From NCBI GenBank assembly GCA_944390285.1, contig CALXPN010000002.1, forward strand, positions 31,762 to 95,761: a stretch of 64,000 bases of DNA, in the 5' to 3' direction. The notes beneath the pieces were generated by a model. It saw only the letters and a list, made by a program, of their open reading frames with translations, did not search any database and had not been told where the DNA came from. The translations under genes and the position numbers were made by a program. The DNA is from an uncultured Clostridia bacterium. GTDB lineage: Bacteria; Bacillota; Clostridia; TANB77; CAG-508. Position 1 is the first letter of the stretch. Every line of letters begins with the position of its first letter. Of the stretch, positions 8,489-13,765 are shown in pieces.

Positions 8489-8520
8489 ATAGAGGGAACC
8501 TTTAATACCCTCTATTTATT
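8487..8520. terminator. Bidirectional terminator between convergent genes
   Basis: 10-bp stem aaatagaggg / ccctctattt with an 11-nt loop. Confidence 0.5.
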
Positions 8521-10042
8521 ATTTTACAAAAAAATCATCAAATTGAATTTTGGATAAATTTATATTTAATTCTTTTTCTAGTTCTTCTTTCTTAAAAGTT
8601 TTATAAACAATTTTAGAGATATACTTTTCAGCTATTTTTAAAATATACTTATAATCTAAAATATCATCTGGAAAATAAATTCCCCCTTTATTTTTGTTTT
8701 TTATCATCCAACAAACTGCTGATAATGCAGACATTGAAACAGGTGTAATTGTAGGAGTTTGCCAATAAGAGTCTTTAGGATTTTTATATAAGAACTCTAG
8801 TTCTACTCTATTTCCTACCCAAACTGGATCAAATTTTTCGCCTAATAGTAAAACTCCAACATATTCTGTTCCTGATTCTATTTTCTCTTTATACACAATT
8901 TCATAATATTCAGGATATATACAACCTCTTATAATTGTTTTACCATTTTCATTTTCACAATCTTGTGGTTTATTTAAATCTAAATCAGGATAACTATTTA
9001 CCTTTGCATTCTCAAAATATTTTTTAGCATATTCACATGGTGAATATAAAAACACTACAGTTGGTCTATAAATAATTTTATCTTGTTTTTTTACTTCTAA
9101 AGCTTTAGCAATAGTAATTGTTTCTTCGTGTGGCACAAGAAATCCCTCAAATTTTCCATTCGGATAATATGTATTACATTTTACATCTAATGCTATTTTA
9201 TTTAGTTCAATAAAGCCTTCTTTTTCATCTATTTTTTTACACTTATCATTAAATCTAATATTTTCGTGTGTTCCTATATTTATTGTTGCTTCACTTAACA
9301 TTTCAAAAAAAAATGAATCTATACACCATGTATTAAATAATTTATTATCTTTATATTCATCATTAATTTTCTGAAGATCTATATCATTTACATGTATCAT
9401 TTTTAGTCCTAATTTGTATGCTATTTCATTAAACTTATTTTCTTTTAATAATTTTTTTAGTTCTTTATTTTTTCCATATTGATTATTTATAATAGATTCC
9501 AATCCTGCTTTTACAAAATGAGATACAAGTCCTGGATTATCTCCATGTTGTAAAACAATAGGATGTTTATTAAATTCTTGATTTTCCAGATACTTTTTTC
9601 TTAAATCTTGTTTTAATTTATTTTCATTTAAAATGCTATACCAATTATCTGGCCAATCTGCTTCTCCTGTATTAATATACATAATATTATTTTTAGCACA
9701 CCAATCACAAATATCTTTTGTTCCAACTGTATCTGCAAAATCTATAAGTAAATCTCCCTCACTTAAATATTTTTTAAAAACCTCACTAAAATTCTCTTTT
9801 GTTACATCACAAATAATAAAGTTTTTAACAATTCCACCTAAATTTACAAAAGCATCAAATTCATATTTGTCTTTTGATATTACAAAATAATTATTTTCAT
9901 AGAATCTTATTTCATTTGAAACTTTTTCATAAAAACTTTTTCCTACTGCTCCAAAACCAAATTGAACAATATTCCCATCAAATTTTATCATTATATAATT
10001 TACATGAATATGCCATTTTGCAAATTCATATTCTCCTTTCAA
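8519..10042 (-). CDS. NAD(P)-binding saccharopine-dehydrogenase-like protein, possibly homospermidine-synthase-like
   Basis: 507 aa; Rossmann GFGAVGKS near the N-terminus; HGDNPGLVSHFVKAGLE resembles the SDH/HSS family. ATGA overlap with the upstream gene indicates translational coupling. Confidence 0.35.
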   Translation of the reverse strand: MKGEYEFAKWHIHVNYIMIKFDGNIVQFGFGAVGKSFYEKVSNEIRFYENNYFVISKDKYEFDAFVNLGGIVKNFIICDVTKENFSEVFKKYLSEGDLLIDFADTVGTKDICDWCAKNNIMYINTGEADWPDNWYSILNENKLKQDLRKKYLENQEFNKHPIVLQHGDNPGLVSHFVKAGLESIINNQYGKNKELKKLLKENKFNEIAYKLGLKMIHVNDIDLQKINDEYKDNKLFNTWCIDSFFFEMLSEATINIGTHENIRFNDKCKKIDEKEGFIELNKIALDVKCNTYYPNGKFEGFLVPHEETITIAKALEVKKQDKIIYRPTVVFLYSPCEYAKKYFENAKVNSYPDLDLNKPQDCENENGKTIIRGCIYPEYYEIVYKEKIESGTEYVGVLLLGEKFDPVWVGNRVELEFLYKNPKDSYWQTPTITPVSMSALSAVCWMIKNKNKGGIYFPDDILDYKYILKIAEKYISKIVYKTFKKEELEKELNINLSKIQFDDFFVK

Positions 10043-10707
10043 TCTTCTTTATCTATTTTCGGTTTTTTTATAATAACAAACTTGGGTATTTCATATTCTT
10101 TTTCCAAGAATATTTTTAATCCTTTTTTTTGAAATTCATATAAAATTTTCTTTAAATCTTTTTGAATAACATTACCTATTATTAAAATTTTTTTTATTTT
10201 ATTATTTAATAAATATTCTGCTGTTGGTAAATCTTGAGCATATATATCCCAACTATTATCAAAAACAGATTCATCTACTTTAAATCTATTCATACGATTA
10301 CTATCTAATAAAAATGTTGGCATTGCATCTTCTTTTATTTGAATTTTTTTTAATTCTCTTGAACCTTTTATTAATCCATATATTATATTCTTATTATCTG
10401 TAGTAGCAATTGAATTTTCTTGTTCTAATGTCCCATTATATATAGGAATTGGTCTAAATCCTAACTTAGCTAGAGCTATTCCATATTCTACACTTTTTAT
10501 TCCTGGAAAATCTACTATTATAGCTGTTTCTAGCATAAATTCATCTAATATTTCTAATTTTGGAATTTGAAAATTATTATATTTATACATTTTTAAATTA
10601 TAATCTATTCCAACAAAAGGAACTGGTCTTACCCAGTCTACCCATTTTGCATTTTCTGGTGCCCATATTTTATAAATTTCTTTACCCGTCATTTTTATTC
10701 CTCTCAA
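10039..10707 (-). CDS. Hypothetical protein (222 aa) inside the operon
   Basis: Overlaps both neighbours (ATGA overlap at 10039-10042); no recognisable motif. Confidence 0.45.
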   Translation of the reverse strand: MRGIKMTGKEIYKIWAPENAKWVDWVRPVPFVGIDYNLKMYKYNNFQIPKLEILDEFMLETAIIVDFPGIKSVEYGIALAKLGFRPIPIYNGTLEQENSIATTDNKNIIYGLIKGSRELKKIQIKEDAMPTFLLDSNRMNRFKVDESVFDNSWDIYAQDLPTAEYLLNNKIKKILIIGNVIQKDLKKILYEFQKKGLKIFLEKEYEIPKFVIIKKPKIDKED

Positions 10708-11899: not shown

Positions 11900-11917
11900 A
11901 ATACTATTTCCTTTCTT

Positions 11918-13765
11918 TTATCTATCTTTCATCATATTTAGTCCATCTTTTATCATTTTTTTCATCAGTTCATCTAATATTCTTTTTCCATCAGGAAAAC
12001 TCATTATTTCTTTCATCAACTTAAAACCAATTTCCGCATCCTTAGCTTTAGAATCTGGTCCCTGTGATGCAAAGAAATGTCTATTTAATTCTTCATTTCC
12101 TATACAAATTTTTGCCAAAACTTTTTCAAATAATTCTTGGTCTTCCAATATTTCTTGATCTATTCCTAAATCATCTAATGTTACATCTAATCCTATATCA
12201 TTTTTTATAAAATTACATATTCCATTTAAATCTCTACAATCAAACTCTGCTACTATTTCTTCTGGTTTTACAAAATCTGGAATTAAATATTCTCTTTCGT
12301 CATTCCCTTCATTTTCACCTTTATATCTTTCAATCGAATCTAAAAATTGTTTGATTGGTGGAATTGTTTTATATACTTCTTCTGGTTTCATCTTTATTAT
12401 ATATATACTACCTGCTGAACCTGTTTGTGGATTGAATTTTGAAAAACTTAAAGCTGATCCTAATTTTGTAGTAGCTGAAATAAAATATCCTCTCCCTTTC
12501 ATACTTTGTTCTTCTGTTAAATCTTCTATTTTTAATTGTGGATTCTTTTTCAAAATTTGTTGTAAATTTTTTTTATTTTTTCCATACTCATATGCATAAA
12601 ATCCACTTTTTTGACCTTTTCTTGTACCTCTAAAAAGATATATATATCCATCTTTTATAAATTTTTCTTCAAGTTTATCTAAATTCGGTATGTTTAATCT
12701 CCCACTTCTTTTAGGATATCCATTTTGGCTTAAAATCTCTTGAACACTATTATATAAAGTTTCTCCTTCTTCACCTTCTGCAAATATTTCTGTTCTTTTA
12801 AATAGTTTATCTAAAGTCTTAGTATTTTTTAAACTAGCTTTTGTTTTTAATAAAGTATCACTTTTTTCTAATATTTCACAAGCAAATTTTATTAAGTTCT
12901 TTGCTTCTTCATTTTGCAATCTATTTGGATCTAATGAGTCTGTCATTAATGGAATAATCTCAGGAAATCTGACCCTATCTAATTTATCTGCATCTTTCAT
13001 TATATTTAATAATTTTCTGTATATAGATTTTTTATGTTTTGACTCTTTTAATATAGCAATTGCTGTTTCATTTTCACCCTTTGATTTGCAATGCTCTGTA
13101 ATTATAAATTTTATTAATTTTTGTTCACTATTTGAAAAATCCTTTAATTCATCTTTTAAATTATCTGCTGCTCTTTTTCCATGCTCTTTATCTTCAAAAT
13201 CATGTATTCTACCATTATCATGATATTCTATAGCAGTTAACACTATTTTTCTTTCTCTTTCTGATATATTTCCTTTTAAACTCATTAACATATCTGCATT
13301 TATTAATACTCTTTTTGTATGTTCTAAATCATGTGAAACAAACCTAAATAAATCTCTTCTTGTATCTAAATCTGCAATATATTGTAATAGACTATCTAAT
13401 TTTCCTTGTTGTTTTAAAATCGCAATTCCCTCTTTAAGAGTATATTGTTTTCTTTTATCTGTACTTAAAAATTTACCTACTCTTGTATTAGGAGCACATA
13501 CTAATTCTTCAATTCTACTAATTTCTTCATTCTGATTTTCTACTTTTTCATTTCTTTCTACATCCCAATTTTCAACAATATCTGATAACCCCTCACAAAC
13601 AAAATCCAAAGCATCAACATCTATATTTCTATTTTTTAATCTTCCTGCTTTTAAATCTTCAAATAACTTATCCACATCTTTTGAACTTTTTGTGATATTT
13701 CTTTTAACATATTTTTCTAATTCTTCTAATTCCTCTTTTGTTAATAAATTTAAATTAGAAATCAT
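11918..13765 (-). CDS. Fusion protein: HD-domain phosphohydrolase (middle) plus C3-exoenzyme-like ADP-ribosyltransferase domain (C-terminal); no signal peptide
   Basis: HD motifs SHDLEHTKRV and EYHDNGR. ART catalytic motifs YLFRGT (Arg; cf. C3 MLFRGD), FISATT (STS; cf. YISTSL) and EREYLIP (ExE; cf. QLEMLLP), spaced about 45 and 58 aa apart. RBS AAAGGGGA. Confidence 0.55.
   Translation of the reverse strand: MISNLNLLTKEELEELEKYVKRNITKSSKDVDKLFEDLKAGRLKNRNIDVDALDFVCEGLSDIVENWDVERNEKVENQNEEISRIEELVCAPNTRVGKFLSTDKRKQYTLKEGIAILKQQGKLDSLLQYIADLDTRRDLFRFVSHDLEHTKRVLINADMLMSLKGNISERERKIVLTAIEYHDNGRIHDFEDKEHGKRAADNLKDELKDFSNSEQKLIKFIITEHCKSKGENETAIAILKESKHKKSIYRKLLNIMKDADKLDRVRFPEIIPLMTDSLDPNRLQNEEAKNLIKFACEILEKSDTLLKTKASLKNTKTLDKLFKRTEIFAEGEEGETLYNSVQEILSQNGYPKRSGRLNIPNLDKLEEKFIKDGYIYLFRGTRKGQKSGFYAYEYGKNKKNLQQILKKNPQLKIEDLTEEQSMKGRGYFISATTKLGSALSFSKFNPQTGSAGSIYIIKMKPEEVYKTIPPIKQFLDSIERYKGENEGNDEREYLIPDFVKPEEIVAEFDCRDLNGICNFIKNDIGLDVTLDDLGIDQEILEDQELFEKVLAKICIGNEELNRHFFASQGPDSKAKDAEIGFKLMKEIMSFPDGKRILDELMKKMIKDGLNMMKDR

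Follow-up and report, generated by a model that had tools for sequence, protein, structure and literature searches.

A candidate polyamine-conjugation module of gut Clostridia and its probably independent HD-ADP-ribosyltransferase neighbour

Four closely packed genes on the minus strand of a Clostridial contig raise a simple question: do they encode one biochemical system or two? The genes, which we call g1 to g4, occupy positions 8519-13765 of a 64,000-nucleotide stretch of DNA from an uncultured Clostridia bacterium (GenBank assembly GCA_944390285.1, contig CALXPN010000002.1); this whole stretch is referred to as the window, and positions are those of the window. The genes encode, in order, a protein that combines an HD phosphohydrolase domain with an ADP-ribosyltransferase (ART) domain (g1), a ligase related to glutathionylspermidine synthetase (GspS; g2), a protein of a large uncharacterised family (g3) and a homologue of homospermidine synthase (HSS; g4). 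We refer to g2, g3 and g4 together as the trio. An earlier note on this DNA, made from the sequence alone, had read all four genes as a single operon which, by analogy with SidE-type effectors, could make ADP-ribose- or phosphoribose-polyamine conjugates. Our analysis points instead to two units, functionally independent of each other, that happen to be neighbours in this lineage, with the trio and a convergent gene for a DUF2207 membrane protein making up a conserved polyamine-conjugation module; we assign this reading a probability of roughly 0.55.

Results

A conserved trio and a gene that seldom adjoins it

We compared the gene neighbourhoods of 79 species-representative loci carrying g3, counting neighbours among those loci with enough flank. 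The ligase gene g2 lies directly upstream of g3 in 71 of 75 loci, a full-length g4 lies directly downstream in 65 of 75, and a convergent DUF2207 gene is found further downstream in 57 of 58. LemA is encoded between g4 and DUF2207 in 27 of 58 loci, although none is present in this window. The module of ligase, g3, HSS and DUF2207, with LemA in other lineages, is widespread in gut Clostridia and Bacilli, and the loci that carry it differ in their outer flanks. The real conserved partners of g2-g4 thus lie outside the coordinates considered in the earlier note: they are the convergent DUF2207 gene and, elsewhere, LemA.

Co-localisation of all four genes across genomes, a check proposed with the four-gene reading, was not found, as g1 adjoins the trio in 1 of the 79 loci and both g1-only and trio-only loci exist. 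A single chromosomal slot (DUF362...PG_binding) occurs in three states: with g1, the trio and DUF2207 (this window, L004 and L016), with the trio and DUF2207 but without g1 (L017), and with g1 but without the trio or DUF2207 (L099). Homologues of g1 at 45-48% identity stand alone beside dapA/dapB, and in a relative that carries both g1 and the trio the g1-g2 gap measures 149 nt and contains a 20-bp hairpin (z=-3.3). The rarity of co-occurrence, the stand-alone homologues, the three states of the slot and this hairpin-bearing gap together make it highly likely that g1 and the trio are independent. Outside one lineage the orthologues of g1 lie away from g2-g4, an outcome that the earlier note had itself named as one that would refute its proposal, and a four-gene system making ADP-ribose- or phosphoribose-polyamine conjugates is not supported.

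Predicted functions of the ligase, its partner and the synthase

The first annotation of g2 as an ATP-grasp ligase of the GspS/YgiC/YjfC type holds. Its match to the Pfam family GSP_synth (PF03738) spans profile positions 26-364 of 371. Its alignment with YgiC and YjfC of E. coli covers the proteins from one end to the other, and it shares 27 invariant columns with these two proteins and with the GspS-like ligase (gss) of phage Motura, including the catalytic motifs ExNxDxP and KP-x3-R, and R380. It also matches the PHROG glutathionylspermidine synthase family (5.6e-13). Similarity to the bifunctional enzyme GspSA is confined to the synthetase part (39.7 bits to PRK10507, for which the NCBIfam equivalog cut-off is 882), and g2 has no CHAP amidase domain. 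An NCBIfam scan of the g1-g4 proteins returned nothing informative.

For g4, too, the initial assignment to saccharopine dehydrogenase/HSS-like NAD enzymes is well supported, with homology over the full length to solved HSS structures (2ph5, E=2.5e-43; 6y87, E=3e-35; 4plp, E=1.5e-28). The protein keeps five of the six active-site residues of Blastochloris viridis HSS (N162, W229, E237, H296 and E298), and the sixth, E210, is replaced by Asp. On this basis g4 is predicted to produce homospermidine. About nine loci have lost HSS but retain the ligase, g3 and DUF2207, so HSS looks like an optional amine supplier. One Agathobacter metagenome-assembled genome (MAG) still carries a short HSS remnant between g3 and DUF2207 (L051:8664-8915; 71% identity over ~84 codons), which documents a recent loss of HSS from the module.

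The third protein had been called an orphan, but its family comprises at least 981 close homologues and at least 1051 clusters at 50% identity. It has no informative match in Pfam or the PDB, many members show only a weak DUF3137 signal, and a comparison with phages gave no match. The AlphaFold2 (AF2) model is confident (predicted local distance difference test (pLDDT) score 85) and has a generic Rossmann-like fold. A natural fusion of the ligase with g3 exists (P0150), and in a more distant subfamily of g3, which we examined in 80 metagenome loci, the ligase lies immediately upstream in 52 of 64 eligible loci. These observations identify the ligase and the g3 domain as the invariant core of the module and g3 as an obligate partner of the ligase.

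Glycine-rich tails in cis and in trans

Members of this more distant subfamily carry a C-terminal extension, either short or placed after about four transmembrane helices, that ends in ...GGFG...G-COOH. Glycine is the last residue in 78 of 91 representatives of mid-length and 18 of 21 long ones, compared with a glycine frequency of 8%, and GGFG is present in 72 of 91. None of the 80 metagenome loci with tail-bearing g3 relatives contains HSS, DUF2207 or LemA. The window-type, tail-less g3 shows the reverse pattern: a C-terminal glycine occurs in 0 of 120 close homologues, and the tail-less protein is essentially always paired with a DUF2207 protein terminating in GGGGRGGGGGGGGH. The C-terminus of the trio-linked DUF2207 proteins, ...YGGGGRGGGGGGGGH, is near-invariant. 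This complementary distribution of the tails, in cis or in trans, makes them the best acceptor candidate for the ligase.

Comparable tails are found beside the E. coli ligases. Immediately upstream of ygiC and yjfC, E. coli K-12 encodes the DUF1190 proteins YgiB (L112:2245-2916) and YjfM (L114:2388-3026), and these two proteins and the DUF1190 protein of Motura (L015:6372-6755) end in R-G-G-[FY]-G-x(7-20)-G-G-COOH; the YjfM C-terminus is ...SRGGYGRSSSARGHWGG and that of the Motura protein ...VRGGFGSTGSSFSAGG. GspS itself joins spermidine to the glycine carboxylate of glutathione. YgiC and YjfC are described as peptide-spermidine ligases (Pederick 2023, cited in PMC11762307), and they do not produce glutathionylspermidine. 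The YgiB and YjfM tails resemble the Clostridial g3-family tails and are possible physiological substrates of YgiC and YjfC. Candidate acceptor peptides would include GGGGRGGGGGGGGH, RRNSAGGFGAVIPEPSSGGYG and the tails of YgiB and YjfM.

A candidate programmed +1 frameshift in DUF2207

In the window and in about 16 related species (L016-L019, L021-L023, L025-L028, L030, L037, L042, L044 and L082), the glycine run of DUF2207 carries one or two additional Cs at NNC-CGG-AGG, with two sites in four species. Beyond this point the 0-frame encodes variable junk, which in the window reads ...RRGSLTHIIIIK. The +1 frame yields ...RGGGGGGGGH-stop, at a length equal to that of the in-frame orthologues, and past the site every substitution that separates the species is synonymous in this frame and in no other. 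Such a pattern is what a programmed +1 frameshift would leave, and we regard the rare CGG codon as its candidate site. Since the exact C-terminus of DUF2207 is preserved even through the candidate frameshift, it appears to be under selection. Our literature searches on DUF2207, LemA/DUF3137, HD-CE and peptide spermidine ligases yielded no mechanistic information.

Protein tail or soluble conjugate

Gene order, domain identities, co-occurrence, the natural fusion and the tail patterns are direct observations, and from them we infer the chemistry of the module and the identity of its acceptor. In the mechanism that we propose, g4 would condense putrescine in an NAD+-dependent reaction that gives homospermidine or a near analogue, and g2 would convert a carboxylate to an acyl phosphate and then amidate it with the polyamine. 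The g3 protein would probably dock the ligase to its substrate or act as a specificity partner, and the likeliest carboxylate would be the C-terminus of a glycine-rich cytoplasmic tail, carried on g3-family proteins or, in this window, on DUF2207. Considered separately, these steps differ in strength. That the trio is a polyamine-amide-forming module is probable, whereas the glycine tail as its acceptor is a tentative proposal with the odds against it. The specific version, in which ligase and g3 form a protein C-terminal polyamination system that places homospermidine or spermidine on ...GGFG...G-COOH or ...RGGGGGGGGH tails, is a little more doubtful still.

The main rival to a protein acceptor is a soluble conjugate of homospermidine with a peptide or amino acid, similar to glutathionylspermidine, in which case g3 would serve as an accessory enzyme, for instance a recycling amidase, and DUF2207 and LemA would be connected only through envelope stress or export. 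Small peptides are the substrates of the characterised relatives of the ligase (GspS, trypanothione synthetase, and YgiC and YjfC in vitro), the invariant polar residues of g3 suggest catalysis, and the ligase-g3 fusion parallels the synthetase-amidase fusion of GspSA; such a product would also agree with how hss-gss clusters were read before (PMC9992855). However, neither a Cys nor a His is invariant in g3, and structural comparison matched it to none of the known amidases. A soluble product also leaves unexplained why 86% of tail-bearing g3 proteins are Gly-terminal after an invariant GGFG, and why the tail-less g3 is paired with a Gly-tailed DUF2207. We consider the soluble conjugate unlikely, though a serious competitor. 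Clostridia are not known to produce glutathione, so glutathionyl-homospermidine in particular is an unlikely product here.

Several points weigh against our reading of two units with a tail-modifying module. The chemistry of every protein in the module is predicted, and g3, with its dense set of invariant polar residues (D66, N91, T93, Q96, R138, K143 and D150-N-S-W-D154), could be an enzyme rather than an adaptor. The trio-linked DUF2207 terminates in His, not Gly, and glycine-rich tails are common in DUF2207 proteins without linkage to the trio. The cytoplasmic placement of the DUF2207 tail follows from a crude hydropathy estimate in which residues 535-567 are read as two helices. YgiB and YjfM have lipoprotein-type signals, which would place their tails in the periplasm, while YgiC and YjfC are cytoplasmic. 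Finally, g1 lies just 18 nt from g2 in this genome, and a lineage-specific functional recruitment of g1 may have taken place.

A rare HD-ART fusion

The presence of an HD domain in g1, as originally annotated, is borne out by a Pfam match just above threshold (PF01966, 24.7 bits; cut-off 22) and by conservation within the family of H149, H182-D183 and D258, the H...HD...D metal-binding signature; HD and HD-CE Pfam matches occur in 15 of 24 family members. The C-terminal domain carries the residues R379 (12629-12631; YLFRG), S430-x-T432-T433 (12467-12478; FISATT) and E490-x-E492 (12290-12298), and this R-S-ExE set is invariant across the family alignment. In a confident AF2 model of residues 300-615 (pLDDT 82.7), the R lies on strand 1, the S-x-T-T on strand 2 and the E-x-E before strand 5, which are the canonical ART strands. 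A Foldseek search with the domain agrees in kind but weakly (best E=2.5e-3), family members match Pfam NarE (weakly) and DUF7587, and a PDB sequence search with g1 gave no match. The domain had been described as C3-exoenzyme-like. Its identity as an ART stands on the invariant residues and the model, but the C3 affinity does not, as no C3 exoenzyme appears among the top 60 structural matches and the closest structures are of the cholera/pertussis/Tre-like kind. ADP-ribosyl transfer by g1 is thus a prediction. No hydrophobic segment or signal peptide is present (maximum 19-residue hydropathy 0.56), so g1 is cytoplasmic, as had been proposed.

The suggested analogy with SidE can be set aside: the SidE_PDE Pfam profile gave no g1 match at E<=1, no SidE chain occurs in the structural match lists, and neither the phosphodiesterase (PDE) nor the ART of the SidE type was matched. 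Nothing ties g1 to polyamines or to SidE-like chemistry. What the protein does instead could be regulatory, or it could be a conflict effector.

A more specific proposal is that g1 is a horizontally acquired toxin or defence effector that consumes NAD or ADP-ribosylates a target, is restrained by the HD domain or the N-terminal module and has no link to polyamines. The family is rare and patchy (25 homologues among 5.8 billion proteins), it is present or absent at one and the same site, its architecture is modular (short paralogues have the N-module and ART without HD), one short paralogue adjoins TrwB/DUF87-type conjugation genes, and structural comparison places toxin ARTs (TreX, TreTu, pertussis-like, LT and Scabin) nearest to it. 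Against these stand the lack of a secretion signal or recognised toxin-delivery domain, a GC content of the g1 region that is the same as that of its flanks, and the lack of any conserved neighbour or immunity-like adjacent gene across the contexts of g1; in PADLOC, moreover, none of g1-g4 has a match at E<=1. On balance an effector role is possible but improbable. Of our two-unit reading we retain that g1 is a rare, sporadically gained and lost HD-ART gene with a putative promoter of its own and is not part of the module.

Candidates for a partner or immunity protein of g1 (NUDIX, a 142-aa open reading frame (ORF), and AraC/GyrI-like genes) were rejected, as none is conserved across contexts. 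Downstream of stand-alone g1 homologues in the dapA/dapB context, at a distance of 0.5-2.7 kb, there is a gene for a NUDIX hydrolase (L002:5565-6080, L003:2416-2931 and L007:14599-15147), which may encode a partner that processes ADP-ribose or may reflect nothing more than shared synteny. In one genome its place is occupied by a prophage-like block (integrase, S24 repressor, HTH genes and HNH) directly downstream of the g1 homologue (L001:12455-21773).

Gene layout and expression signals

The window has a GC content of ~25%, typical for Clostridia, and, with gatB at 94% identity, Candidatus Scatovivens MAGs are the closest relatives that bear a name. The four genes were called as co-directional minus-strand ORFs at 11918-13765 (615 aa), 10682-11899 (405 aa), 10039-10707 (222 aa) and 8519-10042 (507 aa). 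Table 1 gives the features with the starts that we favour.

Table 1. Features of the g1-g4 region and the adjacent DUF2207 gene (window coordinates)
Feature	Position	Strand	Remarks
DUF2207 membrane protein, convergent with g4	6338..8488	+	Pfam DUF2207 and DUF2207_C; Gly-rich C-terminal tail
Candidate programmed +1 frameshift site	8447..8465	+	GGC C GGA GGG GGT CAT TAA; A-site 0-frame codon is the rare CGG
g4, bacterial-type HSS homologue, 490 aa	8519..9991	-	PDB matches; mechanical ORF reaches TTG 10042
g3, 217-aa Rossmann-like alpha/beta protein, tail-less subtype	10039..10692	-	Large uncharacterised family
g2, 405-aa stand-alone GspS-like ATP-grasp acid-amine ligase, YgiC/YjfC type	10682..11899	-	Pfam GSP_synth, 83 bits
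g1, 615 aa	11918..13765	-	N-module, HD, R-S-ExE ART and helical tail
g1 ART domain, aa ~340-560	12086-12748	-	R-S-ExE residues
g1 HD phosphohydrolase domain, aa ~105-322	12800-13453	-	Pfam; conserved metal-binding residues
g1 N-terminal helical module, ~68 aa	13562-13765	-	Part of g1
Sigma-70-like promoter	13807..13835	-	TTGAAA-17-TATAAT + TG, 11/12 matches; just upstream of g1; consensus match only
Terminator-like hairpin, 15 pairs	13874..13906	-	Closes the upstream 119-aa gene

The packed arrangement that was first reported is partly as described: the four ORFs and the 18-nt spacer between g1 and g2, which contains a AAAGGAAAT ribosome-binding site, are present, but the g3/g4 junction reads TTGA rather than ATGA and the overlap of g2 and g3 is 11 nt rather than 26. 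The start of g3 is most likely ATG 10692, giving 217 aa, as in 44 aligned homologues, and not the 222 aa given before; from this start the gene overlaps the g2 stop by 11 nt, and g2 and g3 are translationally coupled here. The TTG at 10042 is probably not used by g4. All g4 homologues are 490 aa long and align from residue 15-18 onward, so translation most likely begins at ATG 9991, leaving a spacer of ~45 nt after g3. Within this interval, at 9997-10029 on the minus strand, a strong ribosome-binding site, AAAGGAG, precedes an ATG that is out of frame and opens a nine-codon mini-ORF (MNLQNGIFM), which terminates a few nucleotides short of the likely g4 start codon and may be a translational-coupling or leader element.

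No terminator-like site was found between g1, g2, g3 and g4, and this, together with the 18-nt gap with its ribosome-binding site and the strong promoter-like site upstream of g1, makes co-transcription of g1-g4 plausible in this genome. The total count of promoter-like sites in the region is not above that in shuffles. What does not hold of the single-operon claim is its conservation, with g1 beside the trio in 1 of 79 loci. The idea of a single pathway or conflict module made up of all four genes, joining SidE-like ADP-ribose or phosphoribose species to polyamines, draws on the tight packing without terminators, on an HD-then-ART order recalling the PDE-then-mono-ART (mART) order of SidE and on an arrangement retained in a relative of 60% identity, but is very improbable given that single co-occurrence, the g1-only and trio-only states at one site, the stand-alone homologues and HD-less short paralogues, the missing SidE matches among Pfam and top structural hits, and the hairpin in the relative's 149-nt gap.

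The hairpin at 13874-13906 sets the 119-aa gene apart from the g1 transcript. This lipoprotein-like gene (13929-14288, minus strand) is co-directional with g1 here and divergent in all relatives, and its identity to the counterparts (L004:9478-9831, L017:6120-6467 and L099:1013-1393) is only 28-47%; this points to an inversion or a replacement that took place locally, at the margin of the variable slot.

Discussion

Peptide-polyamine ligase activity has been demonstrated for stand-alone GspS-like ligases, a group to which YgiC, YjfC and thousands of related proteins belong. The module described here, represented by at least 1000 sequence clusters in gut Clostridia, ties such a ligase to a polyamine synthase, an obligate partner and glycine C-termini in cis or in trans. 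If the specific version with a protein tail as acceptor is true, polyamination of these tails would be, for bacteria, a previously undescribed post-translational modification, and by the same logic the YgiB and YjfM tails would be the long-sought physiological substrates of YgiC and YjfC. One clade would then maintain the exact C-terminus of DUF2207 by programmed +1 frameshifting at a rare CGG codon, and this tail may be a further example of programmed +1 frameshifting, of which very few cases are known from bacteria. Either a novel modification of proteins or a novel polyamine conjugate could come to light in these abundant gut anaerobes, and the result could also account for what the DUF2207/LemA and YgiB/YjfM families do. 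Independently of this, the HD-ART fusion adds a rare architecture to the bacterial ADP-ribosyltransferases.

Comparison with known systems places both units. The ART domain of g1 shares the placement of R, S-x-T-T and E-x-E with the R-S-ExE mARTs (LT-A, PT-S1, ArtA/PltA, NarE, Scabin and TreX/TreTu), with a weak Pfam match to NarE; it differs from them in its fusion to an N-terminal helical module and an HD domain, in an identity of 13-19%, and in lacking a signal peptide, B-subunit, Rhs or other delivery module. SidE effectors likewise carry a phosphohydrolase-type domain N-terminal to an R-S-ExE ART in one polypeptide, but g1 matches neither the PDE nor the ART of SidE, has paralogues without HD and shows no ubiquitin context.

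The g4 protein shares the NAD-binding GxGxxG and five catalytic residues with the HSS enzymes of Legionella (2ph5), P. aeruginosa (6y87) and Blastochloris viridis (4plp). It differs in the Asp at E210 and in an identity of ~25-30%, and it belongs to a Firmicutes clade that is always embedded in a ligase module.

The closest parallels to the module as a whole are the YgiBC and YjfMC pairs and the hss-gss clusters. With the former it shares a stand-alone, amidase-less GspS-like ligase with conserved catalytic motifs, a neighbour ending in RGG[FY]G...GG-COOH and an association with the envelope or membrane. In contrast to these pairs, the ligases are only 18-20% identical, the partner is the cytoplasmic, Rossmann-like g3 domain rather than DUF1190, the membrane partners are DUF2207 and LemA rather than DUF350, PspA and TolC, and a dedicated HSS gene is present. 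Clustering of hss with gss has been noted before, with glutathionyl-homospermidine suggested as the product (Li et al. 2023, PMC9992855). In these clusters, found in the Achromobacter phage Motura and in beta-Proteobacteria, an HSS homologue is likewise grouped with a GspS-like ligase, implying a homospermidine conjugate. The order in Motura is hss-DUF1190-gss-hyp-DUF350, and g4 and g2 are 24-26% and ~20% identical to the phage proteins. We considered the intervening Motura gene as a counterpart of g3 and rejected it, as it encodes a DUF1190 protein that does not align with g3 and is unrelated to it; the DUF1190 and DUF350 accessory genes are not shared with the trio. The Clostridial module is thus a variant of the known hss-gss cluster with different accessory proteins.

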